Virus record (IMG/VR): IMGVR_UViG_3300044546_001014
Source of the DNA: a virus
Strand: one strand, 5' to 3'
DNA: 17,070 nt
The position numbers and the translations under genes are program-made. The notes under the pieces were generated by a model, which saw nothing but the letters and a program-made list of their open reading frames with translations, made no database searches and had not been told where the DNA came from. How positions within the stretch are numbered: the stretch's first letter is position 1; the number at the start of each line of letters is the position of its first letter. Positions 3 to 10,995 of this stretch are shown piece after piece.

Positions 3-1193
3 TATCGCTACAGGATTTATCCTACCCTGCAACAAGAACAACAGATGACGTCTGTGGGTGGTGCAGTTCGATTCCTATACAACCACTTTCTCAAGGTAAA
101 CATAGATCAATACAACCAAGACAAAACATTTGTGTGGCAGTTTGACATGTGCAAACAGTTCACATCACTCAAGACCCAACACACTTGGTTGAAAGACACC
201 TACAGTCAGGTGTTGCAGAGCAGCATCAAGGACCTAGATCAAGCACTCAAGAACATCAAGAAAACCGGTGCTGGGTTCCCCAAGTTCAAGAGCAAGTACA
301 CTACGCCAATAAGTTTCAGATATCAACAACATACATCAATTAGCACTGATGGCAAATATGCCCATCTACCAAAAATAGGTGCTATCAGAATCAAGCTGCA
401 CAGATCACTGCCCAGCAAATATACCGGTTGCACAATCACACAAACACCACGTGGTTGGTATGCAAGTTTTGTGGTTGATGTGGCAGAACTGCCATTGGTA
501 GATCAAGTGCAGAACCCAGTGGGAGTGGATGTCAACAGCCAATACACAGCATTATCAACTGGTGACCTGATTGCCAATCCACGACCACTCAAACAAAAAC
601 AAGTGAAAATTAAGTCACTACAACGCAAACTTGCCAAGAAACAAAAGGCAAGCAAGAACAGAACCAAAGCAAAATTAAAACTGGCACGAACTCATGATCT
701 GGTTCGTTGCCAAAGATTAAACCATATACACCAAATCAGTGCGAGAATAGCCAAATCGCATGACCTGGTGTCAGTTGAAACACTGAAAATTGAAGAGATG
801 AGGAAGAAGAGCAAGCTAGCAGCCAAAGCTATTGCGGATGCAGGATGGGCCATGTTGGCTAACGCAATCGCCTACAAATTCCAACTAGCTGGTCATCACT
901 TCACCAATATAAATCAGTGGCTACTCAGTAGCAAGACATGCAGCTCATGTGGTACCAAGAAATCATCACTGGATTTGAAGCAACGAGAATATCATTGTGA
1001 ATCTTGTGGTGTTACACAGCATCGCGACATCAATGCAGCAGTGAATATCAAGAACTGGGGACTCCAACAATGGAACATAGATCATGCAAGGCAGGAACTG
1101 CCTCAAGCGCCTGTGGATGTGACTTGGGATATAATGGACAATTGGGGCCATGTATCTCAGTCACAATTGAAGCAGGAAGTCACTGCCCTTTAG
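3..1193 (+). CDS. tnpB: IS200/IS605-family TnpB (OrfB), an RNA-guided RuvC-like nuclease; the N-terminus is cut by the window edge
   Basis: The reading frame is open from nt 3 (YRYRIYPTLQQEQQ precedes the listed Met, matching the TnpB N-terminal 'KAYKYRIYPT..EQ' block). The RuvC-I motif is GVDVN; the RuvC-II Glu lies in VSVETLKIEEM. The zinc finger is CSSCG...CESCG and the RuvC-III motif is HRDINAAVNI. A Lys/Arg-rich linker is typical of the family. Confidence 0.9.
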   Translation, partial: YRYRIYPTLQQEQQMTSVGGAVRFLYNHFLKVNIDQYNQDKTFVWQFDMCKQFTSLKTQHTWLKDTYSQVLQSSIKDLDQALKNIKKTGAGFPKFKSKYTTPISFRYQQHTSISTDGKYAHLPKIGAIRIKLHRSLPSKYTGCTITQTPRGWYASFVVDVAELPLVDQVQNPVGVDVNSQYTALSTGDLIANPRPLKQKQVKIKSLQRKLAKKQKASKNRTKAKLKLARTHDLVRCQRLNHIHQISARIAKSHDLVSVETLKIEEMRKKSKLAAKAIADAGWAMLANAIAYKFQLAGHHFTNINQWLLSSKTCSSCGTKKSSLDLKQREYHCESCGVTQHRDINAAVNIKNWGLQQWNIDHARQELPQAPVDVTWDIMDNWGHVSQSQLKQEVTAL

Positions 1194-1802: not shown

Positions 1803-2267
1803 ATGGACAGCAAATGGAAACAACGGTGGCTGAAATTGGCACACGAAGTGGCCAGCTGGAGCAAGGACACTGTTCAGGTGGGTGCCATCATATTTGATCA
1901 CAACAGAAACCCTCGTGGGTTTGGCTACAATGGTCAGCCTCGTGGATTGGATGATCAACATCCTGATAGATTACAACGTCCGCTCAAGCCCTTGTATTTT
2001 GAACATGCAGAACGCAACGTGATTTTTGCCTGTGCTAGAAATGGCATCAGTTGTGATGGTTGCACCATGGTGGTCACACACTGGCCCTGTTGTGATTGTA
2101 CCAGGGCCATCATACAAAGCGGTATAAGAGAATTGATTGTGGATGCAGCGTGCATGGATCCACAAGGTTATTTTTTCCAAAAATGGCAAACTCACATTAG
2201 TGAAAGCCAACAAATGCTGGATGAATGTGGGATTGTCTGGCATCTGGAAAGTTTATCATCAGGATAA
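1803..2267 (+). CDS. dCMP (deoxycytidylate) deaminase
   Basis: The zinc-binding signature HAERNVI...THWPCCDC (HAE / PCxxC) matches the CMP/dCMP deaminase family. An AAGGA sequence lies 8 nt upstream of the ATG. Confidence 0.85.
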   Translation: MDSKWKQRWLKLAHEVASWSKDTVQVGAIIFDHNRNPRGFGYNGQPRGLDDQHPDRLQRPLKPLYFEHAERNVIFACARNGISCDGCTMVVTHWPCCDCTRAIIQSGIRELIVDAACMDPQGYFFQKWQTHISESQQMLDECGIVWHLESLSSG

Positions 2268-3440: not shown

Positions 3441-7364
<3,924 letters not shown>

Positions 7365-7370
7365 TAGAAT

Positions 7371-7400
7371 AACCTCACAGTATGCAACTACTGTGAGGTT
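7371..7400. terminator. bidirectional intrinsic terminator between the convergent tail-fibre and 7431..7847 genes
   Basis: A perfect 12-bp stem (aacctcacagta / tactgtgaggtt) has loop tgcaac. It is followed by ttcaattcc on the plus strand, with ATTCTATCAA on the other side. Confidence 0.6.
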
Positions 7401-7430
7401 TCAATTCCTGAAGATTTTGGTGGATTTATT

Positions 7431-7847
7431 CTATCTGCGTTTACCCAGTTCAGTCATCTTCAAATTACCGGCATATTGCACAGGACCTTTGTGATACAAA
7501 GGCATGAGATTGGCCTTTTTGGCTTGTGCTGCCTTGAGTGCAACTGATTCGCGGTCAGCCATCACAGGATCATCTGCATAGGTGCGTTGCCACTCACTGT
7601 CAAATACACTCTTTTTGAATCCACCCACGCCAAATCCATTACTGCATTCCAGATCTGTTTTTTCAGGCTTGACAGTGCGAGTGAGTTTGCCTGTGGATTT
7701 GGCTCTGCTTGCCAGTTGATCGGGATGAATGCCCTGCTTGCACAACCAAGCTTCATGTTCAGCTTTGGCCTTTTGCTGTTTAGCAGATGGCTTCTTGCGG
7801 GAATTGCCAATGTTGTTATAGGCAGGACCCAGTAAGTGCATGGTCAT
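7431..7847 (-). CDS. hypothetical basic protein (138 aa from the GAGGAG-preceded ATG)
   Basis: The ORF is Lys/Arg-rich. A strong SD (GAGGAG-N7-ATG) lies at the internal Met, so the start is placed at 7847 rather than 7892. Confidence 0.5.
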   Translation of the reverse strand: MTMHLLGPAYNNIGNSRKKPSAKQQKAKAEHEAWLCKQGIHPDQLASRAKSTGKLTRTVKPEKTDLECSNGFGVGGFKKSVFDSEWQRTYADDPVMADRESVALKAAQAKKANLMPLYHKGPVQYAGNLKMTELGKRR

Positions 7848-7907
7848 TGTCAAACTCCTCAACCTTCTATAATCTAGCACATGTGCATTCATGCGTCAAA
7901 GAAAAAA

Positions 7908-7931
7908 GGTGGTGTAATCAAATACACCACC
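7908..7931 (-). terminator. intrinsic terminator for the 8028..8285 minus-strand gene
   Basis: A 9-bp stem (ggtggtgta / tacaccacc) has loop atcaaa. On the minus strand it is immediately followed by a UUUUUUCUUUG run (the plus-strand A-run lies at 7902-7907). Confidence 0.6.
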
Positions 7932-8027
7932 CTTGAGTAACTAGTAACATTCAAATATTCTCTCAATTCACTGGGTGATCAAGAGTATCAAAATTGGATT
8001 TATTATAGTCTATTTAGACTAGAGCAG

Positions 8028-8285
8028 TCATGACCTTTCAAAGGTGATCTTGCTGCGACTGCCATTCTTGTCCCTGGCACTGATGCTATAGGATGTGAGC
8101 CCCTTGTAGTTGGTGCGAGTGTTCACACGCAAACCCAGCTTGCGCAGTTCACTCATTCTTGCACGTAGACTGCGAACATTCCACATTGCCTGGGCCTGAG
8201 CAGACGTGAGTTCACGGCCAGTGCCTCGCAGATAATTCACAATCTTTTGTGCTTGACTGACATCAGTAGTTGTAATGGTTGCCAT
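8028..8285 (-). CDS. small hypothetical protein (85 aa), possibly a DNA-binding regulator
   Basis: A strong SD (AAGGAGG-N6-ATG) precedes the ATG. A helix-rich, basic segment LTSAQAQAMWNVRSLRARMSELRKLGL resembles an HTH or winged-helix recognition region. This is an inference only. Confidence 0.5.
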   Translation of the reverse strand: MATITTTDVSQAQKIVNYLRGTGRELTSAQAQAMWNVRSLRARMSELRKLGLRVNTRTNYKGLTSYSISARDKNGSRSKITFERS

Positions 8286-8360
8286 AGTATGCCTCCTTGT
8301 TGCTTGTTTTTGAGCTATGCAATACTCAAAATTTAAGCTAACAAACAGGCAACGTCAAGC

Positions 8361-8385
8361 ACTCCACCAAGATAGTTGGTGGAGT
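8361..8385 (-). terminator. stem-loop downstream of the 8408..8692 minus-strand gene (putative terminator)
   Basis: A 10-bp stem (actccaccaa / ttggtggagt) has loop gatag. A moderately U-rich tract follows on the minus strand. Confidence 0.4.
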
Positions 8386-8407
8386 CTCAACTCACACTCC
8401 AGGACTA

Positions 8408-8692
8408 TTAGGCAACCATGCGCTGGTCACCATCACCAGCATCACCAACTTCCTCAGCCACAGTTTCAGCAGTGGGGATGGTGAGTCCGCGACGTGCAGC
8501 AAGATCAGCTGCCATCACAGTCTTGAAGGCATCTTCCTTGGTCATCTCGCCAGGCAGCTCGACGAACTCAATGTTCTCGAAGCCTTCCTTGGTCATGGTC
8601 TTGATGCGTGCATCAGCACGACCATTGGTAAAGCGAAACTTGTCCTTGCCCTTGTAGATGGCAGCGCCAATGTGAGTGAAAGTCTTGGCCAT
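8408..8692 (-). CDS. hypothetical protein (94 aa)
   Basis: An SD (AGAGGAGAA-N8-ATG) precedes the ATG. The C-terminus is acidic. No motif is recognised. Confidence 0.5.
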   Translation of the reverse strand: MAKTFTHIGAAIYKGKDKFRFTNGRADARIKTMTKEGFENIEFVELPGEMTKEDAFKTVMAADLAARRGLTIPTAETVAEEVGDAGDGDQRMVA

Positions 8693-8804
8693 AGCTGTTG
8701 TTCTCCTCTGTTTTGAATCAGCTTATGTCATCAATATAGCATCTGACTCTGATCAGTCAATGGGATTTTTTGCCAAAATAACTGATTAAACCCCTAATTG
8801 ATTG

Positions 8805-8832
8805 TTGACATTTTTGCGCCTGGTGCTATTAT
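8805..8832 (+). promoter_or_regulatory. sigma70-type promoter (TTGACA-N16-TATTAT) predicted to give a leaderless mRNA starting at the ATG at 8840
   Basis: A consensus -35 TTGACA (8805-8810) and a -10 TATTAT (8827-8832) lie in the divergent intergenic region. The ATG at 8840 sits 7-8 nt downstream of the -10 box with no room for an SD. Confidence 0.5.
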
Positions 8833-8839
8833 CAGGTTT

Positions 8840-9265
8840 ATGAAAAAGAATTCACCCGTTTACGCATATGTTTTGATGAGAAATGATCTGGCCAGCCTGG
8901 GCGCAGGCAAGGCAGCAGCACATGCTCATCATGCAGGAACAAGAATGACCTACCATGTACGCAAGCATGGCACCAGGGCACAAAAAGATGTGCTCAACAC
9001 CTGGGAACAGGAATGTGAGGGTGTGGGCACCACCATCGTGTTGAGTTGCGATGAAGAAACCATGAAGTGGTGTGTGGCAGAAATTGAAAAACTGCGAGAT
9101 CAGGGTTGCAGTGCAGGTGTGTGGCGTGACCCCACCTATCCCAGCACCACAGAGCGTGGGTTCTGTTTGATGGCAGTGGACGTGTGTGCCTGGGTTCTGG
9201 GCAGCAAGGACGATCTTTCACCTATCCTCAGCGACCTGCCTCTCATGAACAATTGTGCATGGTAA
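8840..9265 (+). CDS. PTH2-family peptidyl-tRNA hydrolase-like protein
   Basis: VYAYVLMRNDLASLGAGKAAAHAHHAG resembles the PTH2 N-terminal block (vvR.DL.mg.GKiaAQ..HA). The start is placed at Met-15 of the listed ORF because the 8798 ATG lies inside the predicted promoter. Confidence 0.45.
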   Translation: MKKNSPVYAYVLMRNDLASLGAGKAAAHAHHAGTRMTYHVRKHGTRAQKDVLNTWEQECEGVGTTIVLSCDEETMKWCVAEIEKLRDQGCSAGVWRDPTYPSTTERGFCLMAVDVCAWVLGSKDDLSPILSDLPLMNNCAW

Positions 9266-9268
9266 CAC

Positions 9269-9478
9269 ATGCAAGTGACCTTGACTCTGTCAAAAGAACA
9301 AATTCATAAATGGCAACAAGTGTGGACTCACAACGGATTTAGAGACTGGAATGATGCTGGTAGTTGGCTCTGGTGTAATTACCGAGCCAATGCCTATCGT
9401 GATCGTGGAGGCATGCTGTTTGTTTTTGAAACGCAAGAAGAACAAACGTCATTTTTGCTCTCCTGGCTGTCTGACTAA
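9269..9478 (+). CDS. small hypothetical protein (69 aa, Trp-rich)
   Basis: The ORF abuts the preceding gene (stop-4 nt-ATG). No motif is recognised. Confidence 0.35.
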   Translation: MQVTLTLSKEQIHKWQQVWTHNGFRDWNDAGSWLWCNYRANAYRDRGGMLFVFETQEEQTSFLLSWLSD

Positions 9479-9597
9479 TAGGCCTATTCCACATGATATG
9501 GCGTGAATACAGAGATATATGGAAAAACCAAACTCTCTACATAGTAAGTCTATCATCAGAAGAATGGCCCAGTGCAACCTTGCATGAAATAGTGCAT

Positions 9598-9617
9598 GGT
9601 CTCTGCTTCCAGAGACC
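9598..9617. terminator. hairpin between convergent genes (possible bidirectional terminator)
   Basis: An 8-bp stem (ggtctctg / cagagacc) has loop cttc. The flanking U tracts are weak. Confidence 0.3.
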
Positions 9618-9707
9618 CGCCGAATTACCGCTATCTTACAGCATCATAACTTGTGAACTGTTTGTTATTCACCAGCTATTATTAGCATGGGCATCGCACA
9701 TTGTCAA

Positions 9708-10148
9708 CTACAAAGTATATTCAAAATTTTGCGTGTGTGAATTTATTTGCAGCAACTGAGCACCATTTTTGATGTGAAATTTGGTTGCCATGTCCGTGAG
9801 AGGACTGAGAGTCACCAATCTTTGGATGTGACCCAAATTAGTCTTCACATGATTTCTCGCATGAACAATCATGGCCTGACCTCCACCTTTTTCAATAGCC
9901 CAGATGGTGTATAACACTGCCACTGTGGCATCAGTGCCCTGATAGCTGAACAATTGTTGCTCTTGAGTAGGCACTGTATCTGTGAATGCCACACATACCA
10001 CACTCTGCGGCTCATCCTGCTCGTTTAACAGCACCCAAACACTGGCATTATTGCCCACTCGCTGATGTGGGGGAATATGAGGACGAACAGGATCTTCTTT
10101 GATCAATTCCATCAAGGGATCGTGGATATCCTCTAGAGTTACCAGCAT
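9708..10148 (-). CDS. hypothetical protein, possibly a GNAT-fold acetyltransferase
   Basis: A GGAG sequence lies 9 nt upstream of the ATG at 10148; the listed upstream start has no SD. 'AVLYTIWAIEKGGGQAMI' loosely resembles the GNAT motif A (Q/RxxGxG/A). Confidence 0.35.
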   Translation of the reverse strand: MLVTLEDIHDPLMELIKEDPVRPHIPPHQRVGNNASVWVLLNEQDEPQSVVCVAFTDTVPTQEQQLFSYQGTDATVAVLYTIWAIEKGGGQAMIVHARNHVKTNLGHIQRLVTLSPLTDMATKFHIKNGAQLLQINSHTQNFEYTL

Positions 10149-10215
10149 GTGTGCGTCTCCTATAATACACATATTTAAAGACGCAGCACTAGTGTATTTC
10201 AAATAGCTAGACTTT

Positions 10216-10473
10216 TTAGCACCAATTCAAATCAAAATATGTTTTGTATGCTTTGTCACAAAAATACACTGTGAGCAAAGTTTTTTTCTGATCACTGCTC
10301 CAATGCTGCCAACTGAGTTGGCCCATATGTTCCAGACACCATTTGATGATCAGTTGACTGCGTTCCTGATCCAGGTTGTGCAATTCAGTTTTGTAGGGCC
10401 AGTGCTTTGCCATGGGTTTGTATTTAAGATCTACTCTGCTAGGTATTGTGGATCCCACTGCAATACAAACCAT
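10216..10473 (-). pseudogene. downstream half of a possibly frameshifted gene (it overlaps 10431..10660 by 43 nt in the -1 frame)
   Basis: Two same-strand ORFs overlap by 43 nt. The downstream one has no RBS, and there is no obvious slippery heptamer. Confidence 0.3.
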
Positions 10474-10660
10474 ACAAAAAGTTCATGAGTTCTAAAGATC
10501 AATGCCATATTCAAGGGATCAATATCCCAATCATCTGCGTCAAAATTATCCTTGCACCATTCTATTTGGTCCTTGACCAAATGTGGTAATTTGTCCTTGT
10601 GACCAAAATTGACTATATCTATAGTGCGTAATTTATAGCTGGGATAGGGAACTGCTGTCA
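10431..10660 (-). CDS. hypothetical protein; the upstream half of the overlapping ORF pair
   Basis: The first ATG is at 10660; the listed start at 10670 is a TTG. Confidence 0.35.
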
Positions 10661-10722
10661 TCTTGTCCAAGAATGCGGCAAGAATTGTTGCAGAGTCAAT
10701 TTGTAGGAGATTATGGAAATTT

Positions 10723-10847
10723 TGGTAGGCCCCCTCCGGTTCGAACGGAGATATGCTCGCTTATAGTTTGGGGATTGAGGAGTTGAACCTCATTGTGTAA
10801 CCTACATCCCCCGAGGCGAGTTCATTCACCAATTATGATAGAGGCCC
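10723..10847 (-). tRNA. tRNA-like cloverleaf with canonical acceptor, D and T arms and an encoded CCA, but a ~65-nt anticodon-arm region in place of 17 nt (a tRNA with an insertion, or a tRNA-derived structured RNA)
   Basis: Minus-strand reading: acceptor gggcctc/ggggcct (5 Watson-Crick + 2 G-U pairs); T8 A9; D stem tcat/atga with D loop aattggtga (A14, G18G19, A21). The anticodon stem is ctcgc/gcgag and the loop begins c-U33-CGG-G37, followed by a ~48-nt insertion. The insertion contains a second canonical T-arm (tgagg TTCAACT cctca) closed by ggggat/atcccc. The variable loop is catat, the T arm is ctccg TTCGAAC cggag, the discriminator is A, and CCA is encoded. Confidence 0.5.
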
Positions 10848-10995
10848 TTACCAACTGTTCATATATTATGTGCTAGATATGGGTTTGTCAACACATAATA
10901 TATAAATAAAGATGGTAATCCTGTTGCTACGAACAACAGGAAACCCGGCTTGGAGCCCCAGGCTGTCCCACACATATATTTACTTGGAGATTCCT

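Follow-up and report, generated by a model that had tools for sequence, protein, structure and literature searches.

Peptidyl-tRNA hydrolases of the PTH2 type (Pfam PF01981), such as the enzymes with structures 1XTY and 1Q7S (human PTRH2/Bit1), are archaeal or eukaryotic in origin (PMC7824862). PTH2-annotated proteins are also present in many phages and giant viruses: a Lake Erie study found PTH2 to be an abundant virus-encoded gene (PMC12542629), and Iyer et al. (2021) described it in jumbo phages, proposing that it helps to rescue ribosomes after tRNA cleavage (PMC7824862). Leaderless mRNAs, which begin with AUG and carry no Shine-Dalgarno sequence, are known from bacteria and phages, an example being lambda cI transcribed from PRM (PMC10491246); 70S ribosomes bind them directly at the 5'-proximal AUG (PMC9031893), and leaderless genes can be recognized by a TANNNT whose first T lies about 12 nucleotides (nt) before the start codon (PMC3160421). 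Here we analyze a viral gene that appears to combine both features. It lies in IMG/VR record IMGVR_UViG_3300044546_001014, a stretch of 17,070 nt whose full length we call the window, and encodes a 141-residue protein of the PTH2 family (8840-9265, plus strand, with the stop codon TAA at 9263-9265) whose mRNA is quite probably leaderless, starting at or beside A8840, the A of its ATG. Since large-phage PTH2 genes and leaderless phage mRNAs are both already described, this is a clean but fairly ordinary case of a phage PTH2 gene.

An earlier note, made from the letters of the window, had called the product PTH2-like, and its membership of the PTH2 family is confirmed by sequence, fold and conserved residues. 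The search with the PF01981 hidden Markov model proposed in that note gave a match of 29.6 bits (cut-off 23; E 8.8e-07), in which residues 10-99 align with positions 4-83 of the 115 in the profile. The protein also matches PHROG 1866 (E 1.2e-15), a group annotated as of unknown function. An AlphaFold2 model built from 30 homologues had a mean predicted local distance difference test (pLDDT) score of 92.4 and a predicted template-modelling (pTM) score of 0.86, and when it was compared with the PDB using Foldseek, all 13 matches at E<=0.001 were Pth2 enzymes (3erj, 2zv3, 1xty, 1wn2, 1rlk, 1q7s). Target-normalised TM scores ranged from 0.67 to 0.85, with 0.85 for Sulfolobus solfataricus Pth2 (1xty), and human Bit1 (1q7s) was also matched. 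With hhalign, we obtained a full-length alignment to the core of human PTRH2 at 91% probability, using a human reference whose first 72 residues, but not its last 45, are backed by the tool alignments.

The conserved residues point the same way. The motif R-x-D-L...G-x-G-K-x-A-A-x-x-x-H-A and a later invariant Asp are common to the window protein and to archaeal and eukaryotic Pth2. In the alignment with 1xty, K24 falls on K18 and D97 on D86, two residues of S. solfataricus Pth2 that work by Fromant and co-workers from 2005 is said to have found essential for catalysis. Among 41 representatives of the family (30-43% identical to the window protein, except P0003 at 78%), D97 is invariant and K24 is conserved in at least 90%, and a profile made from them matches six Pth2 structures with E values from 5e-07 to 2e-03. 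Because of this family membership, fold and residue conservation, the best-supported activity would be hydrolysis of peptidyl-tRNA or N-acyl-aminoacyl-tRNA, returning the tRNA to the pool.

The resemblance to archaeal and eukaryotic Pth2 has clear limits. Identity is only 17-22%, and the NCBIfam Pth2 equivalog models NF003314 and TIGR00283 were not reached (20.6 bits for a cut-off of 126, and 19.2 for one of 82), placing the protein in a divergent phage-associated subfamily rather than among the orthologues of archaeal Pth2. It is about 25 residues longer than its archaeal and eukaryotic counterparts, carries AAH, as does its clade, where they carry AAQ, is phage-borne, and has a predicted activity. 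An exhaustive profile search retrieved 688 clusters (50% identity) at E<=1e-10, so that the family is a large one. The archaeal or eukaryotic origin assumed in the earlier note agrees with PMC7824862, and needs to be qualified in that the protein belongs to this large family of its own, scoring far below the archaeal equivalog cut-offs.

Two features weigh against an ordinary Pth2 function: the distance from the equivalog cut-offs, and the beta-hairpin that follows D97, which in both the model and the hhalign alignment is longer than in canonical Pth2, so that the substrate may differ. They open the way to an alternative, in which the gene is leaderless and its product is a PTH2-fold esterase specialised for another tRNA-linked substrate, serving counter-defence and not housekeeping recycling. 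Its substrate could be N-acetyl-aminoacyl-tRNA produced by GNAT-type toxins, or the peptidyl fragments that tRNAs carry after cleavage by host anticodon nucleases. Besides the size and separateness of the family, this alternative draws on the company the gene keeps, since those members known from isolated viruses are encoded by phages, phage-like genes surround the relatives in the metagenome loci that we examined, and neighbours related to RNA or tRNA include a HAD_SAK_2 protein (a domain of RNA-repair systems), a PP-loop TilS-like protein and, in relatives, tRNA genes. Bacterial Pth is reported to reverse the acetylation of aminoacyl-tRNA by TacT (PMC9241777), which makes a counter-defence role plausible, and the proposal of Iyer et al. 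that phage PTH2 acts on peptidyl-tRNA after tRNA cleavage goes in the same direction. However, R14, D16, G23, K24, A27, H31 and D97 are all kept as in canonical Pth2, leaving the ordinary activity unopposed; a PADLOC search of the PTH2 protein and five neighbours gave no match to any defence or anti-defence model; and the literature searched holds no experiment on any phage PTH2. We consider a specialised substrate possible but rather unlikely, and keep to a hydrolase that recycles tRNA in the usual way.

Public gene calls often give this protein as a 155-residue form starting at TTG 8798 (P0001 among them), whereas for other proteins in its 90% cluster the called length is 141 residues. Comparison with homologues indicates that the true start is ATG 8840 and not TTG 8798. 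Nearly all sequences in the 30-homologue alignment start at the Met that corresponds to 8840, and the few that extend beyond it do so with mutually unrelated sequences. Viral and metagenome collections were also searched for orthologous loci, and exact look-up of homologues was used as a further source; 13 loci, the window included, have distinct upstream sequences, and their PTH2 proteins are 51-100% identical to that of the window. In most of them the upstream frame closes after 3-12 codons, and 6 of the 13 contain no alternative in-frame start upstream of the ATG. The longer open reading frame (ORF) from TTG 8798, whose use the earlier note had set against its own proposal, is thus conserved neither in homologues nor in orthologous loci. 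If the product were nevertheless the 155-residue protein, the promoter-like motif described below would lie inside the coding sequence. The database entries with the long form and the 14 open codons upstream of the ATG in the window speak for this, but the 14-residue extension is absent or unrelated elsewhere and TTG 8798 has no Shine-Dalgarno sequence and lies 5' of the sole credible promoter, so that we regard it as very improbable. For annotation, this means that a spurious TTG start and a 155-residue product are common in public records, and that the 141-residue form from ATG 8840 is the one supported by the starts of homologues and the upstream frames of orthologous loci.

Immediately upstream of this ATG is a strong candidate promoter. 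Direct reading and a consensus scan both confirmed the TTGACA-N16-TATTAT and the ORF reported in the earlier note: the -35 hexamer TTGACA occupies 8805-8810 and is followed after 16 nt by the extended -10 element TGcTATTAT (8824-8832, with TG at 8824-8825 and TATTAT at 8827-8832), both on the plus strand. The hexamers are 16 nt apart and TG stands one base 5' of the -10, as in sigma-70-type promoters with an extended -10, whose spacing is 16-18 nt. With 11 of 12 consensus positions plus the TG, the site is among the three best in the window. Since the window as a whole contains 28 promoter-like sites against 25.0 (sd 4.3) in shuffled sequences, a lone match of this kind is unconvincing, and its weight comes from position and conservation. 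Only 7 nt (caggttt) separate TATTAT from ATG 8840, and the geometry of the -10 predicts a transcription start at 8839-8840, most likely at A8840. The first T of the -10 hexamer is 13 nt upstream of the ATG, in agreement with the leaderless signature, and the gene starts with AUG without a Shine-Dalgarno sequence. AGG at 8834-8836 was considered as one and rejected, its spacing of 3 nt being too short and the triplet not being conserved.

The surroundings leave little room for another start. The upstream gene, encoding 94 residues (8408-8692, minus strand), is divergent and has its own promoter, TTGACT-16-TATATT with a TG extension (8760-8733, minus strand, from the promoter scan), which serves it through a leader of about 34 nt containing AGAGGAG. 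Plus-strand transcription must therefore begin within the 147-nt intergenic region, in which a low-threshold scan revealed no further plus-strand -35/-10 pair above 8/12. Seen from the plus strand, the GTCAA motif of the divergent promoter, followed by a T-run, recurs in the intergenic regions of relatives.

Conservation of the layout carries most of the argument. All 13 loci have a -35-like hexamer, a spacer of 16-17 nt, a (TGn)TATnnn -10 and an invariant ATG, so the placing of a start on or next to ATG 8840, claimed in the earlier note, is matched by a geometry that is kept throughout. Nine loci have TTGACx as their -35, and the other four have TTGTGx (three loci) or TTGCGA. Between the -10 and the ATG there are 6 nt in 11 loci, against 7 nt in the window itself and 5 nt in L022, so that the first T of the hexamer lies 12 nt before the ATG in 11 relatives and 11 nt in one. 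Automatic scoring shows the leaderless layout at 12 of the 13 PTH2 starts; in L020 the scorer chose another register, and an alignment anchored on the -10 adds it as TGcTATATG-agcact-ATG. In that alignment of all 13 loci, the three columns of TAT hold 2.0, 2.0 and 1.4 bits and those of the upstream TG about 1.0 and 0.6 bits, while most remaining columns stay at or below 0.6 bits, the rest of the upstream region having diverged. The 5-7 nt before the ATG contain no conserved purine-rich or Shine-Dalgarno-like motif in the 13 loci, the gap being too short for Shine-Dalgarno spacing, and the base preceding the A of the ATG is a pyrimidine in 12 of them. As a background, we scored 4834 ATGs in the window and 11 related loci: 31 had a promoter score of at least 10 in the leaderless register, and 12 of these were PTH2 starts. 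Of 200 shuffles, 199 fold more strongly than the first 60 nt of the predicted transcript, and structure is also weak over the first 45 nt in every orthologue; this agrees with a leaderless mRNA but counts for little, because most bacterial gene starts show low structure.

Some points nonetheless weigh against a leaderless mRNA. A consensus match is no proof of promoter activity, and the 5' end here is predicted. The promoter rules of the host and its capacity for leaderless translation are assumed. The window differs from most relatives in its gap of 7 instead of 6 nt, which makes a start at T8839, with a leader of 1 nt, possible.

The principal competing explanation is that transcription begins elsewhere, from an unrecognised promoter, through a phage polymerase or by read-through, and that translation of the leadered transcript needs no Shine-Dalgarno sequence, proceeding for instance by S1-dependent or 70S-scanning initiation, the conserved boxes being something else, for example an operator. 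Many window genes lack a good Shine-Dalgarno sequence, so that initiation without one does occur in this system; moreover, other window genes have their nearest relatives in huge phages, phages of large size can encode polymerases of their own (PMC5312081), and the transcription start considered here is predicted from sequence. But such a transcript would need a start in an intergenic region that is closed upstream by a divergent gene and has no other candidate promoter; no conserved second promoter was found upstream of PTH2 in the 13 loci. The conserved columns are exactly the -35, the TG extension and the -10 at 16-17-nt spacing, and the fixed distance of 5-7 nt to the ATG would be unexplained if the boxes were unrelated to the 5' end. 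Finally, leadered orthologues of neighbouring genes acquire Shine-Dalgarno sequences of the GGAG type, which is this lineage's leadered form and is absent here. We therefore judge a leadered transcript to be improbable, and hold, with fair confidence drawn from the alignments, that the PTH2 mRNA is leaderless.

The PTH2 gene is not alone in this layout. The earlier note credits all other window genes with a good Shine-Dalgarno sequence, but we found a clear and well-spaced one before only about five or six of the roughly 20 starts (minus-strand examples are 8285, 8692 and 7847, plus-strand ones 3441 and 1803); starts without one include 45, 9269 and 10912 (plus) and 10473 and 14937 (minus). 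Nor does the view of PTH2 as a lone exception hold, since in relatives a promoter abuts the ATG of the 139-residue gene in five of nine loci, that of the dCMP deaminase gene in two of three, and that of the PP-loop gene in three out of five shown, which amount to two distinct sequences because L012 and L013 are the same upstream. In the window, the 139-residue gene (7431-7847, minus strand) and the dCMP deaminase gene (1803-2267, plus strand) each lie behind a similar promoter and have a leader, about 17-27 nt long, with GAGGAG or AAGGA. Being leaderless in some relatives and leadered in the window, these orthologues switch between the two forms, unlike the PTH2 gene, which is of the leaderless type in all 13 loci. 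Switching orthologues of the two genes were seen in L001, L003, L012, L014, L020 and L022. Two other candidates were dismissed: the plus-strand ORF 14293-15051 behind TGcTATAAT is spurious, the real PP-loop gene being on the opposite strand, and a minus-strand ORF at 2243 with a promoter-like motif is antisense to the dCMP deaminase gene.

Downstream, the PTH2 gene is followed after 3 nt by a 69-residue gene (9269-9478, plus strand), the junction reading TAAcacATG. In 11 related loci, tblastn located this gene behind PTH2 and in the same orientation. Its proximity and lack of a Shine-Dalgarno sequence suggest coupled re-initiation, and it is probably co-transcribed with PTH2. In close relatives PTH2 heads a plus-strand block of small ORFs, which is short in the window. 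The divergent 94-residue gene, for which no Pfam, PHROG or PADLOC match was found, is a conserved neighbour at the same position in 11 related loci; the minus-strand block of relatives, divergent from the PTH2 block, includes the 94-residue protein and an HTH_39 protein.

Taken together, the explanation that we propose, and regard as likely in its entirety, would run as follows. RNA polymerase with the host primary sigma factor would recognise TTGACA-16-TGcTATTAT and start at or within one base of A8840, producing an mRNA that opens with the AUG of the gene, without any leader for ribosome binding. This 5' AUG would be bound directly by a 70S ribosome with initiator tRNA, which would make the 141-residue PTH2-fold esterase, and the 69-residue gene would probably be translated by re-initiation on the same transcript. 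The esterase would take the peptidyl or N-acyl-aminoacyl group off the tRNA, and the free tRNA would go back to the pool during infection. We infer the 5' end, the 70S-type initiation and the enzymatic substrate, as well as the timing of expression and the benefit to the phage.

Comparison with the known systems shows what is shared and what is particular to this clade. The protein A0A0F6WCM5 of Sinorhizobium phage phiN3 belongs to the same family (34% identity, TM 0.85), and so do those of Brevundimonas, Caulobacter and Erythrobacter phages and PHROG 1866; identities by tblastn are 35-42%. The predicted role, tRNA recycling or ribosome rescue, is the same for the PTH2 proteins of large phages. 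In the Brevundimonas, Caulobacter and Erythrobacter phages, PTH2 is an internal operon gene that its neighbours overlap or closely abut, and it is not promoter-proximal; of other distant homologues, that of L009 has a normal leader with a Shine-Dalgarno sequence and that of L023 overlaps the preceding gene. The window clade differs from the isolated phages examined in that PTH2 heads the transcription unit with a promoter abutting its ATG. With described leaderless mRNAs of bacteria and phages the window gene has in common the AUG start without Shine-Dalgarno sequence, a -10 about 12 nt upstream, a weakly structured 5' end and the expected direct binding by 70S ribosomes. Unlike lambda cI, it encodes an enzyme at the head of a small operon, not a repressor, and has a 5' end that is predicted; unlike other known leaderless mRNAs, its layout is kept across a whole phage clade while neighbouring genes alternate with leadered forms.

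Other features of the window concern translation as well, and the earlier note had grouped PTH2 with a TilS gene and a tRNA-like RNA, both of which we recovered. The first is a 200-residue PP-loop (ATP_bind_3) protein (14335-14937, minus strand) with 43% identity to TilS-annotated proteins of PA5oct-like jumbo phages; its closest phage relatives come from uncultured phages of 635-642 kb, followed by the PA5oct-like ones. The second is an element at 10723-10819 (minus strand), preceded by a promoter TTGACA-17-TAATAT at 10891-10863 (minus strand), which comprises a T-arm (CTCCG-TTCGAAC-CGGAG) and another hairpin resembling a T-loop, with GGGGCCTACCA after them. ARAGORN with default settings found no tRNA anywhere in the window, and Rfam nothing above chance in the window or in 10650-10900; with relaxed settings ARAGORN called a 97-nt 'tRNA-Leu(caa)', and the L016 homologue (9668-9761) was called tRNA-Ser(cga). 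The fold z-score of the element is only -1.8.

Six relatives have a tRNA with a CTA anticodon, of the amber-suppressor type and labelled 'tRNA-Pyl' by ARAGORN, 1-3 kb past the PTH2 operon, always on the minus strand (L012 13337-13412, L014 12223-12298, L016 8390-8464, L001 8277-8352, L018 4366-4438 and L019 4194-4269). The window retains a remnant consisting of its first 35 nt (9611-9645, minus strand), directly behind a consensus promoter at 9707-9678 (minus strand). Homology to L018 ends in the anticodon stem at 9611 and that to L002 at 9618, and a hairpin GGTCTCT-GGAAGC-AGAGACC adjoins the end of homology, so the edge of the remnant looks, at the sequence level, like a recombination breakpoint. 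An 88-residue ORF on the opposite strand (9493-9759, plus) overlaps the remnant and its promoter; it is conserved as a protein only in its first 42 residues and only in L002, and is probably not a gene. Of 20 window genes, 5 still use TAG as their stop codon.

A large freshwater phage is the probable source of the contig. A near-identity DNA search with 7000-11000 gave no match among 50,697 phage records, and a scan of one genome each from 185,579 bacterial and archaeal species contained no close relative of the PTH2 protein, so no prophage or host copy was identified. The protein with major-vault-protein shoulder and repeat domains (829 residues, 11805-14294, minus strand) has as its only phage relatives, among isolates and the record collection, the huge phages LR756500-LR756503, of 462-735 kb, at 37% identity. 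A tail-fibre-like protein of 1307 residues (3441-7364, plus strand) has collagen repeats and a C-terminal S74 chaperone domain; we also noted a repeat with a period of about 51 nt, visible as a series of near-identical terminator-like hairpins on the minus strand, at 4515-5606. TnpB (45-1193, plus strand; OrfB_IS605 with a Cas12f1-like TNB domain) was tried as a clue to the host and dropped, as its matches are only 31-42% identical and scattered over unrelated phyla. In related contigs TnpB genes occupy differing places (L014 12853-14001; L020 from 6002 onwards), which indicates active IS200/IS605-type elements in this phage group. In addition to these and to the HAD_SAK_2 protein and dCMP deaminase, the window encodes a ferritin, an HNH protein and a saccharopine-dehydrogenase-like protein.

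A more far-reaching idea, to which we give little credence, is that this phage lineage may deliberately place genes of the translation apparatus on AUG-first mRNAs, which 70S ribosomes could translate while the 30S/Shine-Dalgarno route is impaired by the phage itself or by host defences that arrest translation. The gene set may then comprise PTH2 in every member and, in some, the PP-loop/TilS-like gene and other operon-head genes; PTH2, of the leaderless type in 13 of 13 loci, may be the one gene that is bound to this layout, its neighbours being free to change between forms; and PTH2, with the amber-suppressor tRNA of relatives, may clear peptidyl-tRNA left by read-through and by stalled ribosomes.

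Current understanding of phage PTH2 genes and of leaderless mRNAs would remain as it is unless experiments bring a surprise. PTH2-type hydrolases are widespread in large phages, and a strongly promoted gene that heads an operon lends itself to distinguishing tRNA recycling from the countering of tRNA-directed defences. In the 13 loci, the arrangement in which the promoter abuts the AUG has stayed fixed while its surroundings diverged, and the neighbouring orthologues that occur in leaderless and leadered versions provide a small natural data set on how the two modes of initiation interconvert.

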